The notes under the pieces: generated by a model
The model's database searches: none
The model's input: only the letters and a program-made list of their open reading frames with translations
Told to the model about the DNA's origin: nothing
Shown: positions 24,678 to 34,218 of the stretch, in pieces
Layout of the letters: each line of letters begins with the position of its first letter
Position numbering within the stretch: position 1 is the stretch's first letter
Virus record (IMG/VR): IMGVR_UViG_3300020369_000012
Span: 1-34,563 of that record
From: a virus
Taxonomy: Duplodnaviria > Caudoviricetes
DNA length: 34,563 nt
Reading direction: 5' to 3' (one strand)
Position numbers and translations under genes: made by a program

Positions 24678-25010
24678 ATGTTGCACGGAGAGCTGCGTCT
24701 CACCCACTTCCCCTACTGCCTCCAACGCCAGGAGGACGGGCGCTATGTGTTGCTGAATCGCAACTACAAACCGGTCGGTTTTTTCACTGGCGAGTGGATC
24801 ACCTACGGGGACTACCCCATCGGCGTTAAGGTCAAAGGCCTGACCGCCGCTGTTGCGGCCAGACTCGACTACCAGGGACGCGAGGATCTGGACAGGATCT
24901 ATCTGTACAACGATGGATGCGTGCCGACTGCCAGTGACGCCAACATGCAGCAATACCTCAAGCGCCTCGGCATTCTGATGAGCCTGCGAACAGACGAGGA
25001 AGAGCGCTAA
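24678..25010 (+). CDS. Hypothetical protein encoded antisense to the early right operon
   Basis: SD AAGGAG before ATG 24678; globular-looking sequence (PYCLQRQEDGRYVLLNRNYKPVGF). Confidence 0.75.
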   Translation: MLHGELRLTHFPYCLQRQEDGRYVLLNRNYKPVGFFTGEWITYGDYPIGVKVKGLTAAVAARLDYQGREDLDRIYLYNDGCVPTASDANMQQYLKRLGILMSLRTDEEER

Positions 25011-25011
25011 C

Positions 25012-25227
25012 CTAGCCACGGCGCACCTCCCGTTTCTGATAATCCACTTGGCACGGCATGCAGCGCTTGCACCCCGGAGCAGCTGCGCGCCGCGCCTCGG
25101 GAATGTCCTCACCGCAATCAATGCAGATAGTCAGGGATGGCCCTGCAGGGGTAGATGGGCGGGCAGCTAGTTGAGCCTCAAGCCACTCGGTTTGGTAATC
25201 AGTCGCGCGGTCGACGGTATCAGTCAT
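25012..25227 (-). CDS. TraR/DksA C4 zinc-finger protein (PtrB-like)
   Basis: DTVDRA and CIDCGEDIPEARR...CKRCMPCQ. Confidence 0.9.
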   Translation of the reverse strand: MTDTVDRATDYQTEWLEAQLAARPSTPAGPSLTICIDCGEDIPEARRAAAPGCKRCMPCQVDYQKREVRRG

Positions 25228-25747
25228 TAGATGCGCCCTCCGCCTCACGCTCCAGCACTCGCTCCAGCAGCATCATCGCTGCCATCGAGCGCCGCAGCTG
25301 CAGCTTGCACCGGGCCAACTCTTGCTGATCAATCCGGCCATCATTGGCCAAGCTGGCAGACACCTCACGCATCAGTAGGGACTGCTTGTCCAACGCCCCA
25401 CTGGTTGCGTTCAGCACCGAGCTGACCGACTGAGAGCCAATGCTTTGGCCCTCGGTCAGCTCCCGTAGATCAATCCAGCAGGCATCGCCAAACGCCTCAC
25501 AGATCGAATCCAGAATGCGGCCGTCGCGGGTGGCGTTGGTCACCTCTTCAATGTCGTCTGGGTTGGCAGCGTGCGTTGGCTGGGTCGGGCTCAGCTTGTG
25601 CTGCAGGGTGGACGCACTGCGCCCGAAGATCGCGGCGATTGCCGCTGCACCGCCGGGGTAGTCCCGGCTGGCGTGATACAAGGCCAAACGCAGAGGCAAA
25701 ACCTCGCGCTTGGCCCGTTCCGTACAACTCATGGCGGCTCGGCTCAT
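25220..25747 (-). CDS. CII-like phage regulatory protein
   Basis: DYPGGAAAIA, TLQHKLSPT, DGRIDQQE motifs; position after cro. Confidence 0.8.
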   Translation of the reverse strand: MSRAAMSCTERAKREVLPLRLALYHASRDYPGGAAAIAAIFGRSASTLQHKLSPTQPTHAANPDDIEEVTNATRDGRILDSICEAFGDACWIDLRELTEGQSIGSQSVSSVLNATSGALDKQSLLMREVSASLANDGRIDQQELARCKLQLRRSMAAMMLLERVLEREAEGASND

Positions 25748-25766
25748 GGCATTAGCTCCGTAACTC

Positions 25767-25799
25767 TGCCGTGCCACGCCACAACCGTTTTGCTACAGT
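25767..25799 (+). promoter_or_regulatory. PRE-like promoter (antisense to cro, pointing to cI)
   Basis: GTGCCA(25771-76)-17 nt-TACAGT(25794-99) with extended -10 TG; TGCC/CGCC tetramers flank the -35 as CII boxes do in lambda. Confidence 0.55.
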
Positions 25800-25805
25800 T
25801 GCACC

Positions 25806-26118
25806 GTGAGCACTGCTGTGGTGGTCACAAGTAGGGGCGGTCTTTGGTGGAAAGCCCCTGCACCGGGAGCCAGGCGCTTACATGCACCCGGCTCCCAAAA
25901 CAGCCAGCAACTCTGTGGTGGAGAGGCTGGCAAACCCGGCATCCGTGCCGGGCAAAGCGTGCGATAGGCGGTAAAGCTCTGTGGTGCCGCCTGTCACACA
26001 TGCAGCGGGGAAAAGACTGTGGTGGTCACCCCTGCTGCACCCAACGGCCGATCACTCTGTGGTGGAGAGACTGGCAAGCCCTGCGAAAGCAGGACGGTGA
26101 TAGCCGGGCTAGCCCGGC
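25806..26118 (+). ncRNA. Candidate structured ncRNA: array of ~10 hairpins, six with TGGTG(G) seeds
   Basis: Back-to-back stems; CTGTGGTG(G) at 25816, 25913, 25979, 26017, 26057 and TTTGGTGG at 25843; UCCG and GAAA tetraloops on + strand. Strand is inferred. Confidence 0.65.
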
Positions 26119-26124
26119 AGTCAT

Positions 26125-26352
26125 TCAAGCCGCCTGAGGCTGGTCTGCCTCTGGCGGGAAAACGTCATCCAGTGTGCAGGCACCACAATGCCGAGAAAGC
26201 ACCCCGACAATTGCGCGAGACTCGGCCAGCCCAGGCACACGCCGGCCAGACTCATAGTTACTCCAGCGCCCCTGCGACCAACCAAGCTCATCAGCCAAGA
26301 CAAGCTGACTCACTTTGGCCGCACGCCGAATTTCAGATATTCGATTGCCCAT
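26125..26352 (-). CDS. cro: Cro-like HTH repressor
   Basis: SQLVLADELGWSQGRWSNYESGRR; divergent from cI. Confidence 0.9.
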   Translation of the reverse strand: MGNRISEIRRAAKVSQLVLADELGWSQGRWSNYESGRRVPGLAESRAIVGVLSRHCGACTLDDVFPPEADQPQAA

Positions 26353-26380
26353 GCTGCCTCCTCAAATGGGATCTGACGCA

Positions 26381-26450
26381 AACATAACGACGAATCGTTG
26401 TTTTTGCAAGACGTTTAGTTGTCATTAAAGTTAACGATGCGTGATATTTT
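26381..26450. promoter_or_regulatory. OR region: pR (minus), PRM-like (plus) and operators
   Basis: Minus TTGCAA-17-TATGTT (26409-26381); 18-bp imperfect palindromes ATAACGACGAATCGTTGT (26384-26401) and AAGACGTTTAGTTGTCAT (26408-26425); no SD before cI, suggesting a leaderless mRNA. Confidence 0.65.
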
Positions 26451-26456
26451 TGACCC

Positions 26457-27131
26457 ATGGAAACCTTAGGCAAGAGAATCGCGCGACTGCGCAAAGCAAA
26501 AGACTTATCCCAGGCAGAGCTGGCAGCAGCTTGCGGTTGGGAAAACGGCCAAGCCCGCATCGGAAACTACGAGCTCGATAAGCGCGAACCAACACTATCG
26601 AACCTGCGCACCATCGCTGACGCCCTGGGCACTACCCTCATGCAACTGGTCGAGGGCGAGACTGACCAGGCACACCAAGAAACCAACCACACGCCATCAG
26701 CGCACGACTACGCACTGGTGCCGCAGTACACCGCCAAGGTTGCAGCCGGCAACGGCCAGATGAATGAGCACGTCGAAGTAAAAGGCGGGCTTGTCTTCAA
26801 ACGGGCGTGGCTAAATCGAATGAGCCTCAGAGAGCGAAACCTCCACGTCATTTACGTTGAAGGCCACAGCATGGAGCCGACAATCAGCGACGGAGACGTG
26901 CTTCTCTTTGATGAAAGCCAGACCTCCCCGAAGGACGGCCGGATTTACGTGCTAGCCAAGCCAGACGGCCAGCTAATCATCAAGCGATTGATTCAATCCC
27001 TAACCGGCGGCTGGATCATCCGAAGCGACAACGAAGACAAGCGAACATACCCGGATCAGCCCGTAGCCGACTCAGACATCGAACACATAAGCATTGTCGG
27101 GCGCGCAGTATGGCACGGGGGAGCGCTATAA
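26457..27131 (+). CDS. cI: CI/PrtR-like repressor (HTH + S24 autopeptidase)
   Basis: HTH N-terminus, AAG cleavage site, GHSMEP Ser and IIKRL Lys. Confidence 0.95.
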   Translation: METLGKRIARLRKAKDLSQAELAAACGWENGQARIGNYELDKREPTLSNLRTIADALGTTLMQLVEGETDQAHQETNHTPSAHDYALVPQYTAKVAAGNGQMNEHVEVKGGLVFKRAWLNRMSLRERNLHVIYVEGHSMEPTISDGDVLLFDESQTSPKDGRIYVLAKPDGQLIIKRLIQSLTGGWIIRSDNEDKRTYPDQPVADSDIEHISIVGRAVWHGGAL

Positions 27132-27168
27132 ACGCCCAGAGGAAAGTAGCAAAGCAAAGGAGAGCAAC

Positions 27169-27804
27169 ATGGTCGACTTGCACCAAGAGTTCGAGAATAG
27201 CCGGATATTCCACCAAGCCCGTATTGATCGGCGCTCAGCAGACGCACTGATAGGCCTTGCTTCCGGGATCACTGCCGATGGAAAGATAAACCAGCAGGAA
27301 GCCGAGTTCCTGAAGCGCTGGATCGAAACCAACATGAACCACTATGCCGATCCAGTGGTTAACCTGCTCTATCGGCGACTGGCGGACATGCTCAGCGACA
27401 ACCACTTGGACCAGGACGAGGCCGCAGAGCTACTGGATATGCTCAAGCAATTCACAGGCATCGAACTGGCAGCCGCCACCCCACTTCAGCGCCCTACCAC
27501 ACTCCCACTTAACGACCCCGCCCCCGATCTGGAATGCACCGATAGAGCGTTCCTTTTCACCGGGGTAATGGCATTCGGCCCAAGAAAGGATTGCGAGGCC
27601 ATAGTTATCAATCTCGGCGGACGAATAGCACCATCGGTCAGCAAGAAAGTGGACTTCCTTGTGGTTGGAACTATCGGCAACGACCAGTGGCTGCACAGCA
27701 GCTACGGCACCAAAATCAAGAAGGCCGTTGAACTAAGAGAAGCCGGAAACCCTATCGCAATAATCAGCGAGGAGCACTGGCAAAACACCCTGCTGGGAAA
27801 ATAA
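27169..27804 (+). CDS. TerB-like/BRCT-domain accessory protein
   Basis: GITADGKINQQEAEFL N-terminus; FLFTG..GG..SVSKKVDFLVVG..KIKKA..IISEEHW BRCT motif; SD AAGGAG. Confidence 0.8.
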   Translation: MVDLHQEFENSRIFHQARIDRRSADALIGLASGITADGKINQQEAEFLKRWIETNMNHYADPVVNLLYRRLADMLSDNHLDQDEAAELLDMLKQFTGIELAAATPLQRPTTLPLNDPAPDLECTDRAFLFTGVMAFGPRKDCEAIVINLGGRIAPSVSKKVDFLVVGTIGNDQWLHSSYGTKIKKAVELREAGNPIAIISEEHWQNTLLGK

Positions 27805-27848
27805 AACAACAAATCGTCATTGACCGTATAACAACACTGCGTTATAAA
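27803..27848 (+). promoter_or_regulatory. pL-like early promoter with two operators
   Basis: TTGACC(27820-25)-17-TATAAA(27843-48); AAAACAACAAATCGTCAT (27803-20) and ATAACAACACTGCGTTAT (27828-45) resemble the OR palindromes. Confidence 0.75.
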
Positions 27849-27882
27849 TTGCCTCGTCTACCACCACAGACGAGGCAATGTC

Positions 27883-28047
27883 ATGTCTACCACCACAGTC
27901 CATGCACTCCCATCGTGCGACCACCACCGCATCTTTGAGATCCGCCGCGCACTGACCGGCACCAACTGCAAGCTGGTACTGGCCAAGCGCAAACCCGTCA
28001 GCCGTACCACCACCCAGGGCAACCCGTGGGGAGGTGATGCAGCATGA
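27883..28047 (+). CDS. 54-aa basic first gene of early operon (below ORF-track cutoff)
   Basis: MSTTTVHALPSCDHHRIFEIRRALTGTNCKLVLAKRKPVSRTTTQGNPWGGDAA; SD GAGG; stop overlaps next ATG. Confidence 0.7.
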   Translation: MSTTTVHALPSCDHHRIFEIRRALTGTNCKLVLAKRKPVSRTTTQGNPWGGDAA

Positions 28048-28619
28048 ACCACCTGAACTTCACCCTCCCGCAGAACAGCATCACCCTGCTTGGTGCTCAA
28101 CTCGCTTTAAATGGCAGCTTCCACCACAAGCTGCAGGCCGAAGGCGGCGGATTTATCCCCGTTGATGTGATCTTTGAGCAAGGCGACAACCATGCCGAGG
28201 TCACTGTGCGCGTTGGCGACTCAGTTAACAGCGCGACCTTTGAGCGGCACATGCACTCCCGCGCAAAGCTGGTGCGCTTCATCGAAGACGCCGTGAACGA
28301 GCGGCTGGATAACGCCCGGCTTGGCCCCGTGCCGGTGATCAACCTGCAGCACCACCACCCGATGCTCAGCCGCCAGCAACAGCTGCAGCTGGCGGATCTG
28401 GCCGAACGCGGCGGCTTTGCTGACTTCCAGATCGACCACCTGCTGATCAAGGTCGCGGTCAACCCCTGCCCCGTACCGCCGCTGCCCCACGCAATCATCG
28501 CGTGCGAGCAGGTGGTGGTCTCCGTGGTCACCAGCCACAACCACTCGGCCTGCAGTGCGCGCTTGGTCAGCAGCATCAACGACTTGGCCAACGCCATGCT
28601 CAGCCAAGCGGCAGCGTAA
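28044..28619 (+). CDS. Hypothetical phage protein
   Basis: SD GGAGGT, ATGA-coupled. Confidence 0.7.
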   Translation: MNHLNFTLPQNSITLLGAQLALNGSFHHKLQAEGGGFIPVDVIFEQGDNHAEVTVRVGDSVNSATFERHMHSRAKLVRFIEDAVNERLDNARLGPVPVINLQHHHPMLSRQQQLQLADLAERGGFADFQIDHLLIKVAVNPCPVPPLPHAIIACEQVVVSVVTSHNHSACSARLVSSINDLANAMLSQAAA

Positions 28620-28630
28620 GGGGGTGATCC

Positions 28631-28915
28631 GTGATCCGCGACCTCAAACACGCTGCCGAGCAACTGGGCACCACTCGGCCAAAGCTCATCACCATGATGA
28701 AAAAGGCCGGGCTGCTGAACGCCCAAAACCTGCCCATGCACCCGCAGCGCGACCGCTTCTACCTCATCGAGCACGAGGGCAACTGGTACCACCCCGTCTG
28801 CGGCATGCAGTACAGCAAGAGCACCAGGGTGACGCAGGCCGGTATCAACTGGCTGGCCGACAAGCTGGGGCTTGAGCGCCCACCTGTACCAGAGGATCGG
28901 CGCGGTGTGGCCTAG
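28631..28915 (+). CDS. Antirepressor KilA-C (ANT) domain protein
   Basis: LKHAAEQLGT..KL..M...GLL..QNLP..TRVTQAGINWLA. Confidence 0.75.
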   Translation: MIRDLKHAAEQLGTTRPKLITMMKKAGLLNAQNLPMHPQRDRFYLIEHEGNWYHPVCGMQYSKSTRVTQAGINWLADKLGLERPPVPEDRRGVA

Positions 28916-29063
28916 ACAGTACGCGGCACAGATTCTGGCGCTGGAGAACAAGGAAGCGCGCCAGAAGGCGCTGACCGAGGTGCCAGACGAATACCGCGAG
29001 CTGGTTAAAACCCATGTGATGACGGCCTGGCACCACCCCAGAGCCAACAAGAAGAGCAAGTGA
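28872..29063 (+). CDS. Hypothetical phage protein
   Basis: Fills operon gap; stop overlaps next start; start uncertain. Confidence 0.55.
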   Translation: MSAHLYQRIGAVWPRQYAAQILALENKEARQKALTEVPDEYRELVKTHVMTAWHHPRANKKSK

Positions 29064-29392
29064 CCATGAGCGATGCCGACAACCAACGGCTCCTGCCGTT
29101 CAAGCCAGCGCCCGCCGCCGACACGCTGGAACGCCTGTTCCGCGTGTTCGGTGACGAGCTGATCCCTACCGAGGAAGTACGCGCCAAGTACTTCCGCACC
29201 ACCAACAAAGACACCTTTGGCGCGGCCCTGGGCACCGAGCGCATCCCGCTGCCGGTGACCACGCTGGACAACAGCCAGAAGGCCGCGAAGTTCATCAACA
29301 TCCGCCACCTGGCCGCGTACATCGAGCAGCGCGCCTGGGAAGCGGACCAGCAACTGGCAGCCCGGTGCGAACCGGACAGCCAAACCGCCTGA
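29060..29392 (+). CDS. prtN: Pyocin activator PrtN-family protein
   Basis: LIPTEEVRAKYF, IPLPVTTLDNSQKAAKFINIRHLAAYIE. Confidence 0.85.
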   Translation: MTMSDADNQRLLPFKPAPAADTLERLFRVFGDELIPTEEVRAKYFRTTNKDTFGAALGTERIPLPVTTLDNSQKAAKFINIRHLAAYIEQRAWEADQQLAARCEPDSQTA

Positions 29393-29430
29393 CTGCCACC
29401 ACCAGTCAGACCACCACAGAGGAAGCAACC

Positions 29431-29862
29431 ATGAACCAAGAGATTGTTATGGCGGTATCCATCGGCATCTGCCTGCTGTCGTACCTGTTCGGCATCCTGA
29501 CGGGCAAGGTCGCAGCCAGGGAACACTGGCGCGGGCAGATTGAGCAGCAGCGCAAACAGCTGCTCAGCCAACGGCGCGAAACGCATCAGCTGGAAGTGGA
29601 GCACAAGCGCCTGCAGGCCGAGCACGCCGCACTGGTGAGCCGAGTCCAGCACGAGCGGTACACCCTGCTGCGCGGCGCTCATGAGCTGCGGCTGGCCAGC
29701 AACACCTTCAACGCGCTCAACTCCCCAGAGCACGCCCAGACCGCCATGCAAGTTGGCCTTGAGCTGCAGGCGATGGCTAACAAAGGCATCACCACCGAGC
29801 AGGCCGCGAACGTGGAGCCTGAGCTGCCGAACCAGTGCGAAGAAATGGGGGTGGCGGCATGA
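29431..29862 (+). CDS. Hypothetical protein, N-terminal TM plus coiled coil
   Basis: SD GAGGA; hydrophobic N-terminus. Confidence 0.7.
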   Translation: MNQEIVMAVSIGICLLSYLFGILTGKVAAREHWRGQIEQQRKQLLSQRRETHQLEVEHKRLQAEHAALVSRVQHERYTLLRGAHELRLASNTFNALNSPEHAQTAMQVGLELQAMANKGITTEQAANVEPELPNQCEEMGVAA

Positions 29863-30221
29863 ACCACATCCACCAAGCAGCCATCAGCGCTGCAGCACAG
29901 GCAATCGCCGTGGCCGACGCAGCACACCAGCAAGCCCAGACAGAAGGGATGCCAGCACTGATCCGCCTTGTCGACATTGCTCGCAAGCGCACCGGTCAGA
30001 GCGCCGTGATCGGCCGGTTTCTGCTGGGCCTGTACAACGGCCCGGAGAACCCATTTGATCTGACCGAACTGCGCTGCCTTGATCATGAGCTGTTCAACGA
30101 CTGCCTGCGCGTTCTGCGCATGGACAACCAGCCCACGCACGAGGTGCACGAGTACCTGCCCAACGGCTCCAGCATCTTTGCCGAGCTGCACCAAGCCTAC
30201 GGTAAAGGGGGTGCGGCATGA
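29859..30221 (+). CDS. Conserved hypothetical phage protein
   Basis: TGQSAVIGRFLLGLYNG..FDLTELRCLD; ATGA-coupled. Confidence 0.75.
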   Translation: MNHIHQAAISAAAQAIAVADAAHQQAQTEGMPALIRLVDIARKRTGQSAVIGRFLLGLYNGPENPFDLTELRCLDHELFNDCLRVLRMDNQPTHEVHEYLPNGSSIFAELHQAYGKGGAA

Positions 30222-30772
30222 CGTGGATTCTCACCCGTTCCGGCATCCCGTTTGACCTGCTGGAGCCTGCACCCGACATGGTGCAGCCGATGGACATTGC
30301 CCACGCGCTGGCCCACCTGTGCCGCTTCAACGGTCACACCCTGCAGCACTACTCGGTAGCCGAACACAGCATTCGTGTTGCCCAGCTGGTACCAGCAGAG
30401 CACCAGTTGGCCGCACTACTGCATGACGCCACCGAGGCTTATGTGGGGGATATGGTGCGCCCGCTTAAACAGGTCCTACCCGGTTATCAGCAGATCGAGC
30501 AGCGAGTATGGAAAGCCATCTGCCAGCGCTTTGATCTGGACCCTGTACTGCCCGAGTGCGTGCATCAGGCCGATATGGTGATGCTGGCCACTGAGCGCCG
30601 CGACCTGATGCCAGACCACCCAGCCCAATGGGAGTGCCTGGACGGCGTGGAGCCGCTGCGGGCGCGCATCGTGCCTTGCAACGCAGTCACTGCGCAGGTG
30701 CAGTACTTCAACCTGCTGATGGAGCAGCTGGCCACCACCCACCGCCGCCGCGCTACTGGGGGTGCCGCATGA
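30218..30772 (+). CDS. HD-domain phosphohydrolase (YfbR-like)
   Basis: DIAHAL..CRFNGH..YSVAEHS..LLHDATEAYVGD. Confidence 0.9.
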   Translation: MTWILTRSGIPFDLLEPAPDMVQPMDIAHALAHLCRFNGHTLQHYSVAEHSIRVAQLVPAEHQLAALLHDATEAYVGDMVRPLKQVLPGYQQIEQRVWKAICQRFDLDPVLPECVHQADMVMLATERRDLMPDHPAQWECLDGVEPLRARIVPCNAVTAQVQYFNLLMEQLATTHRRRATGGAA

Positions 30773-30966
30773 ACACGACCATCATCAACGCGCTGCAGAC
30801 AGAACGCCGCGCCCACCTGGCTAATATCCAGCTGCTGGAAGCCACCCTCCCCGACCTTGAGGCGGACAACGCCGACCGAGCGCACCGGACCATCGCGCAC
30901 CTGCGGAGCCGGGTTGAACTGATCAATGCCAAGCTGCAGCGGCCCAGCACGAGGGCGGCAGCATGA
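30769..30966 (+). CDS. Small coiled-coil hypothetical protein
   Basis: ATGA-coupled at both ends. Confidence 0.65.
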   Translation: MNTTIINALQTERRAHLANIQLLEATLPDLEADNADRAHRTIAHLRSRVELINAKLQRPSTRAAA

Positions 30967-31223
30967 CCAGCAGCACCGCAAAAGCTCCGGTCGAGATGCT
31001 GCCCGACAGCCCGACAACAAAGAGCCTCTGCCCCGCAGGGGCAGGCCTTATTGACCAGTGTGAAGCCACGAAGGGCGCGCATACCCCACCACAAGCGTGC
31101 GCCGCGCCCGCCATTGATCGAGCTACCGCAACCACCCCAGCAACGCCGCATGCGCAGCTTGCCAAGGGGTATAAGCACCCCCTGCCCGCCACCACCGGGC
31201 ACACCACAGCAGAGGAAGACGCC

Positions 31224-31619
31224 ATGACCACCACAAAAGAAACCAAAGCCGCCAAAGCAACCATCAAAGACCTGCAGAACCTCATCCGCACCCAGCACGA
31301 ATACACTGAGGGGCTGGCCGGACTGCTGCGACAGATCCGCACCGAAGGGCTGACCGACAGCCTCACCCAGCAGATTGACCAGATCCTGCAGAAGCACACC
31401 CCTTGCAGCACCTGCGGCGGCAGCGCACCGAACTGCCCGGACTGCGACGGGGCGAGCACCCAGCAGGAAACGCTGCTCCCGATTCGTCACCCAGGAACAG
31501 AGCAGCGAGCACGCGAGCTGATGGCGGCGAACCCACGATTGAGCGCCAAGAAAGCCGCCATGCAAGCCAAACGGGAAATCACCGAGGCAGGCATTCGGAA
31601 CGGAGGTGCCGCGCAATGA
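31224..31619 (+). CDS. Hypothetical protein with CxxC-x5-CxxC zinc ribbon (frame also open from 30963)
   Basis: SD GAGGA before ATG 31224; CSTCGGSAPNCPDC. Confidence 0.65.
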   Translation: MTTTKETKAAKATIKDLQNLIRTQHEYTEGLAGLLRQIRTEGLTDSLTQQIDQILQKHTPCSTCGGSAPNCPDCDGASTQQETLLPIRHPGTEQRARELMAANPRLSAKKAAMQAKREITEAGIRNGGAAQ

Positions 31620-32557
31620 CCACCAATCCCGAAACTCATACCTGCCCGGACTGCGGCTACACCTGGCAACACGGCCAGCATGGCGGCCACAGCTGCGCCA
31701 CCCACCTCGCGGCACAGCTGGAGCGGCTCAGGATCGCAGGGGAGCAAATGGTGTTCTCGCTGTGCCACGTCTCGCCAGCTCTGTTTGAACTGCATGGCCC
31801 GCGCCATGACCTACGAGCGCTGATCGACTCGGTGCGCTGCGGACTGGAGCACGCAATCACCGCCGACCCGACATGGTGCGAAACCGCAGCCAGTGAAGGC
31901 GTAACCCTCTCTGATGGGAATGTCTGGATTGCTCGCCCGACCAGCCCGCCAGTGCAGCTCAACAACATCCCAGCCAGCCCCGAGTGGAGCGCACTGCATT
32001 CGCTTGCAAAGTTGGCAGCGGACGCAAACGAGTACTGCCAGCAGATCGGCTTGGGCAAATGGGGCGAGAGCGCCACTGCGGCGCTGATTGCTGACCACAA
32101 GCGATTGAGCCAAGTCAGCCAGAGCGCAGAGGACTGCACAGAGGCAGGCGCGCAGCCGCTAACCTGCGAATGCGGCGACAGCTACCCGTCCAGCAGCTAC
32201 GGGGCAGGCTTCATCGAGGGCCGCGGCCATTGCCCGAACTGCGCCGCGGGAGCGGGTGAAATGGCATCGCTGCTGGGGGTGAGCCCTGCACCAGTTGTAA
32301 ACCAGCAGATGACAACTGAACCGGGTCCCGTTGCCCCGCTGGCACCCAAACACCAGGGCATGCGCATCAGCGCCGCCGGCATGCTCAACCGGGTTGGCGG
32401 CCGCCTCCAGTTCGGCGCACGCGAAATGCTCAAGCACCTCGAAGAAATGGCCGACCGTTACTACGCCGGAGATATCGCCGTGGTGGATGAGTTCCTGCAG
32501 ATGTACTGCCTGGACGAGAAGCGGCCGGAGCAGCAGACCGAAGGGGCGCAGCGATGA
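31616..32557 (+). CDS. Mosaic hypothetical protein with Cys/His zinc-binding motifs
   Basis: SD GGAGGT; CPDC..HSC, CEC..CPNC. Confidence 0.65.
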   Translation: MTTNPETHTCPDCGYTWQHGQHGGHSCATHLAAQLERLRIAGEQMVFSLCHVSPALFELHGPRHDLRALIDSVRCGLEHAITADPTWCETAASEGVTLSDGNVWIARPTSPPVQLNNIPASPEWSALHSLAKLAADANEYCQQIGLGKWGESATAALIADHKRLSQVSQSAEDCTEAGAQPLTCECGDSYPSSSYGAGFIEGRGHCPNCAAGAGEMASLLGVSPAPVVNQQMTTEPGPVAPLAPKHQGMRISAAGMLNRVGGRLQFGAREMLKHLEEMADRYYAGDIAVVDEFLQMYCLDEKRPEQQTEGAQR

Positions 32558-33710: not shown

Positions 33711-34015
33711 CCTGCCACCTACACCGCTGCACCAACCTGCCAGAGCCCGGCTACATCGAGCGAGGAACGCGCCCCAAGAAGCCAGTTCAGTGGCGGGTGA
33801 ACTACCTGATCAAAACCCCTGACGGAAAAACCCACATCGAGAACACAGTCATCAAGCAGCCGGTCACGATTCCCGAGCTGCTGGCGATCATGGACAAGAT
33901 GATCGAACGCTTTGGTGATGAAGTGGGGAACATAGCGACTCAGGTCACCTGGGACGCTTTCTCGCGGGGTGGGCATGGCAACAAGAAGAAGGGAAAGCGG
34001 AGGGCCTCAGCATGA
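33707..34015 (+). CDS. Hypothetical phage protein
   Basis: SD GAGGT; ATGA-coupled. Confidence 0.65.
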   Translation: MTCHLHRCTNLPEPGYIERGTRPKKPVQWRVNYLIKTPDGKTHIENTVIKQPVTIPELLAIMDKMIERFGDEVGNIATQVTWDAFSRGGHGNKKKGKRRASA

Positions 34016-34218
34016 GCGCCGCCAAGGTACTAGAATTTGAGGAGCTGCAGCGGATCACCGGCTATACCCGGCGCGCAGATGTGGAAAAGTCGCTACGCCG
34101 GCAGGGAATCAAAACCTTCGTTGGCCGCAATGGGCCATGGACGACCATCGATCTGGTCAACCAGGCAGGCGGGCTACGCCCAGCGGATAACGACAACTAC
34201 GGACCAGACATCGTATGA
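34012..34218 (+). CDS. xis: Excisionase-like DUF4224 protein
   Basis: LEFEELQRITGYTR..LRRQGI..GRNGPWTT; directly before integrase. Confidence 0.8.
   Translation: MSAAKVLEFEELQRITGYTRRADVEKSLRRQGIKTFVGRNGPWTTIDLVNQAGGLRPADNDNYGPDIV

Follow-up and report, generated by a model that had tools for sequence, protein, structure and literature searches.

What is the function of a series of similar hairpins in the gap between the cro and cII genes of a temperate phage, when sequences complementary to their loops are found at gene starts on the other side of the cI gene? This question is raised by IMG/VR record IMGVR_UViG_3300020369_000012, a whole contig of 34.6 kb from a temperate phage whose cI/cro/cII switch is of the lambdoid type (hereafter the window, meaning the entire stretch of DNA analyzed). 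Its cro–cII gap holds hairpins with UGGU-cored loops (the array), and starts within the + strand early (pL) operon carry the complementary CCACCAC motif. Two explanations had been proposed in a first-pass annotation, antisense silencing of the operon that includes the antirepressor, prtN and xis genes, or a set of protein-binding elements resembling lambda boxB. The analysis described below favors the former: as judged from sequence, the array is probably a multi-loop antisense small RNA (sRNA) that would block ribosome entry into the pL operon.

Searches with cII yielded 163 related loci in addition to the window, the two larger searches contributing the best 80 of 519 and the best 80 of 124. 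Seven loci with no cI match in the right orientation were left out, and the remaining 157, from Pseudomonas and Halomonadaceae, were grouped into 46 clusters by intergenic sequence. A total of 23 further loci were examined and 12 of them added, giving a set of 58 loci for the private-seed test and the stem and mismatch tests. Since these loci are mutually related, the p-values below overstate independence; start calls were heuristic, and the p-values should be read as optimistic. The array occupies the cro–cII gap in all 157 usable loci, and in each of them the gap contains at least two GTGGT[GA] or TTGGT[TG] seeds. Loops with the UGGU core were found on the + strand of 46/46 arrays, on the other strand of 2/46 and in 8/46 control stretches. 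The array of the window folds with z-scores of -6.5 on the + strand and -5.1 on the other; the + strand folds better in 37 of the 46 clusters and its consensus fold is the more stable (-99.5 versus -75.8 kcal/mol), in a comparison in which G-U pairs favor G-rich strands.

The same architecture, a CCACCAC-loop hairpin followed by a second site, had been described at three starts of the window. All the strings are present at these positions, and the extended pairings claimed for particular loops and sites are all exact complements, of 12 nt between 26015-26 (hairpin H7) and 27889-900, and of 11 nt between 25813-23 and 31202-12, between 25911-21 or 26055-65 and 29411-21, between 26017-27 and 29409-19, and between 26018-28 and 31225-35. 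Four + strand CCACCAC loops have a stem of at least 6 bp, three of them being these sites and one (28121) lying within a gene. The window contains 24 copies of CCACCAC, where 7.4 would be expected (reached in 0/100 shuffles). Synonymous-codon shuffles of the pL operon gave 4.5 copies on average, compared with the 12 observed (0/1000). Array complements of at least 10 nt were found at 3 of the 16 starts of the operon, whereas the shuffles had 0.63 on average (three reached in 6/1000). Among clustered 11-nt matches in the operon, four of five are located at starts, which cover 14% of it. Predicted net binding after opening costs ranges from -7 to -16 kcal/mol and is strongest at the second, unstructured sites; because the longer pairings involve these sites, the loop of the hairpin probably serves just for entry.

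The targeted starts do belong to the operon of the antirepressor, prtN and xis genes as proposed, but they are the heads of translationally coupled blocks and not the starts of those genes themselves. Site 1 stands at the head of the pL operon, the gene at 29431 heads a five-gene chain coupled by ATGA (29431-29859-30218-30769-30963), and the start at 31224 heads an unbroken ATGA-coupled chain ending in xis. The last start is also an in-frame internal start of a 218-amino-acid (aa) open reading frame (ORF; 30963-31619), which suggests two products.

Hairpin 1 had been said to cover the Shine-Dalgarno (SD) sequence. The hairpin string is present, but its 5' arm overlaps the predicted -10 of pL, so that only read-through RNA should form the complete stem over the SD, and the pL transcript would retain only the top of the stem. 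Opening of the SD–AUG region at this site is predicted to cost 7-9 kcal/mol on the pL transcript and 20.8 kcal/mol with the full stem, and the long stem probably silences the site-1 start on read-through RNA from cI. As a strict pL -10 pattern matched only 6/38, the -35 position was used instead: a TTG hexamer is located at a median of 42 nt 5' of the CACCAC core in 35/46 clusters (in one, L003, not at the first gene), and therefore pL should start about 6 nt before the loop.

Among the 46 clusters, exact complements of at least 10 nt numbered 197 on the pL mRNA strand; the opposite strand had 88, and shuffling of the arrays gave 85. The rightward (pR) operon gave no enrichment (98 sites versus 104 on its opposite strand). 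A total of 123 of the 197 complements are near starts, which make up 17% of the sequence, and matches were found at 89/545 uncoupled starts but at only 10/302 coupled ones, as called heuristically. In the 58-locus set, CACCAC lies within a stem of at least 5 bp in 55/220 cases upstream of starts and 16/403 elsewhere. The target set is real and conserved.

Loops and targets also change together. The cognate score was 32.0. Arrays of the three relatives nearest by cII scored 29.5 (cognate higher in 30 cases and lower in 14, p=6.5e-5) and those of the 15 farthest 27.5 (cognate higher in 44/46), so that the co-variation of seed and target across related phages, suggested as a check on the annotation, was indeed found. 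Seeds present at a single locus had a complement at that locus's own starts in 33/338 cases, against 251/19,266 (1.3%) at other loci. As examples picked by eye, the target of the common CATGTGGTGTGC seed is present in 19/20 loci and that of the ATTGGTTTGC seed in 9/9, and altered seeds with altered targets are found in L146, L195, L207, L099, L108, L006 and L156, all of them tips inside clades of other seeds on the cII tree. Some of these tip-level compensatory changes span the AUG. In phages with altered seeds the other loops keep the common seed and target, and within each of L207, L099 and L140 several targets have switched to the same new seed. Tracking of this kind, specific to the loop and reaching over 10-18 nt into the stem bases, is predicted by base pairing but not by recognition through a single binding protein.

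The signals expected of a separate transcription unit are on the + strand. The predicted pE-like promoter at the cII end of the array keeps TAnnnT in register in 40/46 clusters and a TG extension of the -10 in 28/38, and from its sequence the extended -10 may give basal activity without CII. The two halves of the upstream inverted repeat are centered at 25749 and 25769, 20 bp apart and at about -57 and -37 of the predicted start, and their GGCA-to-TGCC offset of 19 nt is kept in 35/46 clusters. CII of phage 186 binds half-sites centered at -38 and -58 of pE (PMC6593788). A 186-type pE is characterized by activation through CII and by negligible basal activity. An intrinsic terminator closes the array on the + strand in 27/46 clusters and on the - strand in none. 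A consensus scan of the window for promoters missed both predicted ones, the pE-like and the pL-like. A hairpin spans the pE-like promoter (25771-25811 and homologs), and a core of the CACCAC type, possibly a feedback target on the pR mRNA, is present at this promoter hairpin in the cII leader of 25/46 clusters.

Antisense silencing is therefore carried by the + strand signals, the loop-specific co-variation in 46-58 clusters and the sites across start codons, and several results weigh against it. Polarity of G-U versus A-C was absent from array stems (28:32), from no-GU consensus structures (20:11, 6:7, 6:9, 3:2 and 29:26), from duplex flanks (48:68, equal to background) and from internal duplex mismatches (8:5); being neutral, these four tests were not used as support. 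The cognate array was the best or tied in only 9/46 columns because the core seed is shared. Plain duplex energies at the three starts (-23.1 to -25.6) are weakly separated from background (-18.7 +/- 3.0), and the prtN start reaches -25.8. A U-tract terminator is lacking from arrays of the clade to which the window belongs, and the pR strand folds well, too, and bears RsmA-like GGA hairpins. In one of eight public RNA runs matched against the relative L171, a 151-nt contig lies wholly within the array with a depth of 9,897, compared with 174 and 64 on its flanks; since contigs give no strand, ends or level, this peak is a hint only. The other seven runs (X2, X5, X6, X9, X10, X11 and X15; kind unrecorded) did not resolve the array, X5 being free of a peak at low depth.

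The same findings bear on the possibility that the CCACCAC hairpins are same-sense elements for protein binding, with RsmA on the GGA hairpins. On pR RNA the array would then be either a site of the nut/boxB kind or a decoy that, like CsrB, draws off a protein of the pL leaders. The array and the pL leader occupy the positions of lambda nutR and nutL, and neutral polarity is compatible with this reading, which retains a small share of the probability mainly because of the fold and the GGA hairpins of the pR strand. Hairpin loops of CANGGANG in the cII leader are found on the pR strand of 22/46 arrays and on the + strand of none, where they read as UNCG-like. The CACGGAUG and CANGGANG loops are similar to the RsmA/CsrA-binding consensus; through these hairpins the host Gac/Rsm system may act on cII, or else they are sRNA loops of UNCG-like type. 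No co-variation of the hairpins with SD sequences of pL was seen. A role of UCC loops as anti-SD seeds was rejected in general (cognate 15.9 versus 15.8, p=0.89, 37 loci), and UCC-loop matches of 8-10 nt to the SD were nonetheless observed in L005 and L010. Lambda N is an arginine-rich protein and the first pL gene product; the first pL protein here contains only 5-9 Arg plus Lys in 41-67 aa (34 homologs). Protein binding is hard to reconcile with distinct loops that co-vary with distinct targets within one phage and with the many single-stranded sites across the AUG; no - strand intrinsic terminator was found at the cro end of the array (0/46), and the dedicated + strand promoter and terminator would be left without an explanation. 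The boxB-like alternative of the first-pass annotation thus fits poorly and is considered unlikely.

A slim chance is given to the reading that the array is the leader of a pE-to-cI establishment transcript, in which pairing with pL mRNA (or with pR mRNA in cis) would set terminator read-through or activate the targets. In phage 186, pE does transcribe cI (PMC6593788), and the terminator located between pE and cro in most clusters is missing from the window's clade. In one Halomonadaceae-like group (L188, L195, L196 and L197) the loop of the terminator hairpin itself is a UGGU seed with a complement of 10-13 nt in the pL leader (5/6 loci having the seed). Sites across the AUG or at codons 1-6 should, however, block initiation, and the long site-1 stem that pairing could open is predicted to be absent from the pL transcript. 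It is very improbable that the loops guide a protein to DNA, as in R-loop formation or RNA-guided transcription control: the multiple exchangeable loops are guide-like and site 1 is just past the pL start point, but the sites follow ribosome-binding regions of uncoupled genes and not promoters, and none of 23 neighboring proteins scanned is a candidate nuclease-fold or recombinase partner. Least credible is that the matches are non-functional products of C/A-rich leaders and local copying between inverted repeats, since CCACCAC is indeed frequent on the pL strand but the codon-shuffle and positional controls, the 157/157 conservation and the joint switching of several targets in L207, L099 and L140 speak against it.

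Under antisense control by the array, the following sequence of events is proposed. A 186 pE-like promoter, probably boosted by CII, would drive a multi-hairpin + strand RNA of about 250-310 nt, which would end at the terminator in most clades, whereas in the window's clade it would be the beginning of an RNA that extends further from pE. A loop would make the first contact with the exposed CCACCAC of a target hairpin, and other loops would then pair over 10-18 nt at the SD or AUG and prevent 30S entry. Because the targeted starts head translationally coupled chains, blocking at the three sites would silence the greater part of the pL operon, including the antirepressor-like, PrtN, methylase and xis genes, probably with polar termination in addition, as for P1 icd/ant and P4. 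The RNA would also be cis-antisense to the cII leader, so that mutual titration between the sRNA and transcription from pR would follow, and the outcome would be an RNA layer favoring lysogeny alongside CI. Rather tentatively, and at somewhat under even confidence, the array may represent a widespread "multi-guide" antisense RNA of phages, driven by a CII promoter, with separately evolving seed hairpins that each fit one ribosome-entry point of the opposite early operon. Together with RNA from pR it would make up a switch at the RNA level, and it would confer cross-immunity between phages with different CI.

Table 1. Positions of the array, its predicted signals and target sites, and neighboring genes in the window
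Feature	Position	Strand	Basis or remark
cII-like gene, CP76 / phage 186 CII family	25220..25747	-	Pfam PF06892, E=5e-20; phrog_101
CII-type inverted repeat	25746..25772		half-sites ATGGCAT (25746-52) and CTGCCGT (25766-72); CII binding presumed
Predicted pE-like promoter	25771..25799	+	GTGCCA, 17 nt, extended -10 TGcTACAGT
Array, predicted multi-hairpin antisense sRNA	25806..26120	+	fold z-score, seed conservation
UGGU-cored loops of array	~25818-22, 25844-48, 25915-19, 25978-86, 26019-23, 26059-63	+	
Hairpin with UCCG loop on +	25936..25953		sequence; CACGGAUG on pR strand, RsmA-like
cro-like helix-turn-helix (HTH) gene	26125..26352	-	Pfam HTH_31; PHROG
cI-like repressor, HTH + S24 peptidase	26457..27131	+	Pfam, PHROG
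Predicted pL-like promoter	27820..27850	+	TTGACC -35; -10 at ~27843-50; start at ~27855-57
Target 1 hairpin	27848..27879	+	12-bp stem; loop complementary to seeds of H1/H4/H7/H8 over 10 nt
First pL gene, conserved ~57-aa protein	27883..28047	+	phrog_35204 (family with no assigned function); ATGA-coupled to next gene
Target 1b, ACCACCACAGTC	27889..27900	+	codons 3-6 of first pL gene; 12-nt H7 complement; predicted net -16.2 kcal/mol after opening costs
KilAC-domain antirepressor-like gene	28631..28915	+	Pfam ANT, phrog_63; start without direct site
PrtN-family gene	29060..29392	+	PF11112
Target 2	29389..29421	+	hairpin 29389-409; second site 29409-21 reaching into SD of gene at 29431
Target 3	31183..31235	+	hairpin 31183-201; site 31202-12 before SD; site 31225-35 across ATG at 31224
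Fourth site, 9 nt	31617..31625	+	across ATG at 31616
Excisionase-like gene	34012..34218	+	phrog_1266; end of target-3-headed chain

Apart from the genes listed in Table 1, the pL operon includes DUF7673, YfbR-like and methylase genes. The first pL gene is coupled to the next one by ATGA or GTGA in most relatives and is possibly an icd-like leader cistron. A BRCT-domain gene 3' of cI (27169-27804) is accessory, as is an ORF of 110 aa without annotation (24678-25010), located on the opposite strand within the replication operon. Among named relatives, the nearest by cII (76%) is a prophage of Halopseudomonas.

Variants of the array were also observed. Tandem duplication together with a CII-type box was found in the cro–cII gaps of L012, L013, L055, L063, L074, L096, L109 and L119; the inner copy retains a TACACT or TAAACT -10, which most first copies lack. 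In the second hairpin of L004, L084 and L279 the seed is replaced on the + strand by CGCTCTTA, which resembles the lambda boxA consensus and may be there by chance. Among 22 Haddon-like prophages of the Pseudomonas aeruginosa type (L164-L185), three cro–cI types were found, and the array and target 1 are common to 21 of the 22, so that the RNA module crosses repressor groups.

If the proposed control is true, many prophages of Pseudomonas and Halomonadaceae would have an RNA layer in addition to the classical CI/Cro/CII switch, with 519 cII relatives in IMG/VR alone and cultured examples in Haddon, LPPA36, U5 and H4907. An RNA acting across repressor types would predict superinfection exclusion that is missed by comparison of CI, of relevance to host-range work, and the array would be a compact natural design in which one RNA silences several genes. 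The natural compensatory seed–target pairs make the pairing directly testable.

No description of the array RNA was found in the literature searched; it could be listed without a name among large sets of candidate RNAs or in supplementary catalogues of sRNAs. The words sRNA, antisense and non-coding do not occur in the H4907 genome paper, and no such motif is present in the parts examined of PMC2864571 (text and supplement) and PMC5737381. Rfam gave no gathering-level match in the window or six relatives and no C4 match up to E=10 in 25000-32000; a mir-341 match (E=5.4) was attributed to chance.

The array likely works in the manner of P1 C4 and P4 CI but stands outside that family, as indicated by both Rfam and the locus. 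C4 and its targets are parts of a single transcript. The array instead lies 2-5.5 kb from its targets with cro and cI between them, appears to have pE-like promoter signals of its own, and carries 3-6 similar UGGU loops in separate hairpins for at least three target starts. In P1/P7 C4 (Rfam RF01695; targets a1b1/a2b2), as proposed for the array, loop seeds control an antirepressor operon, and in both the seeds co-vary with the targets. The small first gene of the array phage, coupled to downstream genes, resembles P1 icd. P1 C4 is described as a phage RNA repressor with short loop seeds and an antirepressor operon (PMC8201110). The array has no covariance-model match to C4, c4-2 or isrK, and its seeds and fold are unlike the C4 rows examined in the supplement of PMC2864571. 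P4 CI RNA is an immunity factor acting on early transcripts, with termination tied to translation (PMC10111431); relatives of CI and seqA are detected by the Rfam models C4 and isrK. CI, like seqA in this comparison, differs from the array in that it arises by processing inside the eta gene and has a nearby site, whereas the array is intergenic in a lambdoid switch and has no C4/isrK match.

Lambda OOP and aQ and P22 sar are, as is proposed for the array, antisense RNAs of the lysis–lysogeny circuit, aQ being made from paQ, which acts with pRE and pI, and sar blocking translation of ant (PMC12197685). Each of them has one overlapping cis target, whereas the array has repeated seeds and distant targets. 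Lambda nut/boxB and CsrB/RsmZ share with the array the cro–cII position, a repeated loop motif and GGA hairpins on the pR strand; the array differs by loop- and stem-specific co-variation with its targets and by the lack of an arginine-rich first pL protein. The promoter region resembles pE of phage 186, with an adjacent CII of the CP76 family, an orientation facing pR, and inverted half-sites at about -57 and -37, separated by 20 bp (PMC6593788). While 186 pE makes cI mRNA, the pE-like promoter of the window precedes a hairpin array, followed in most relatives by a terminator.

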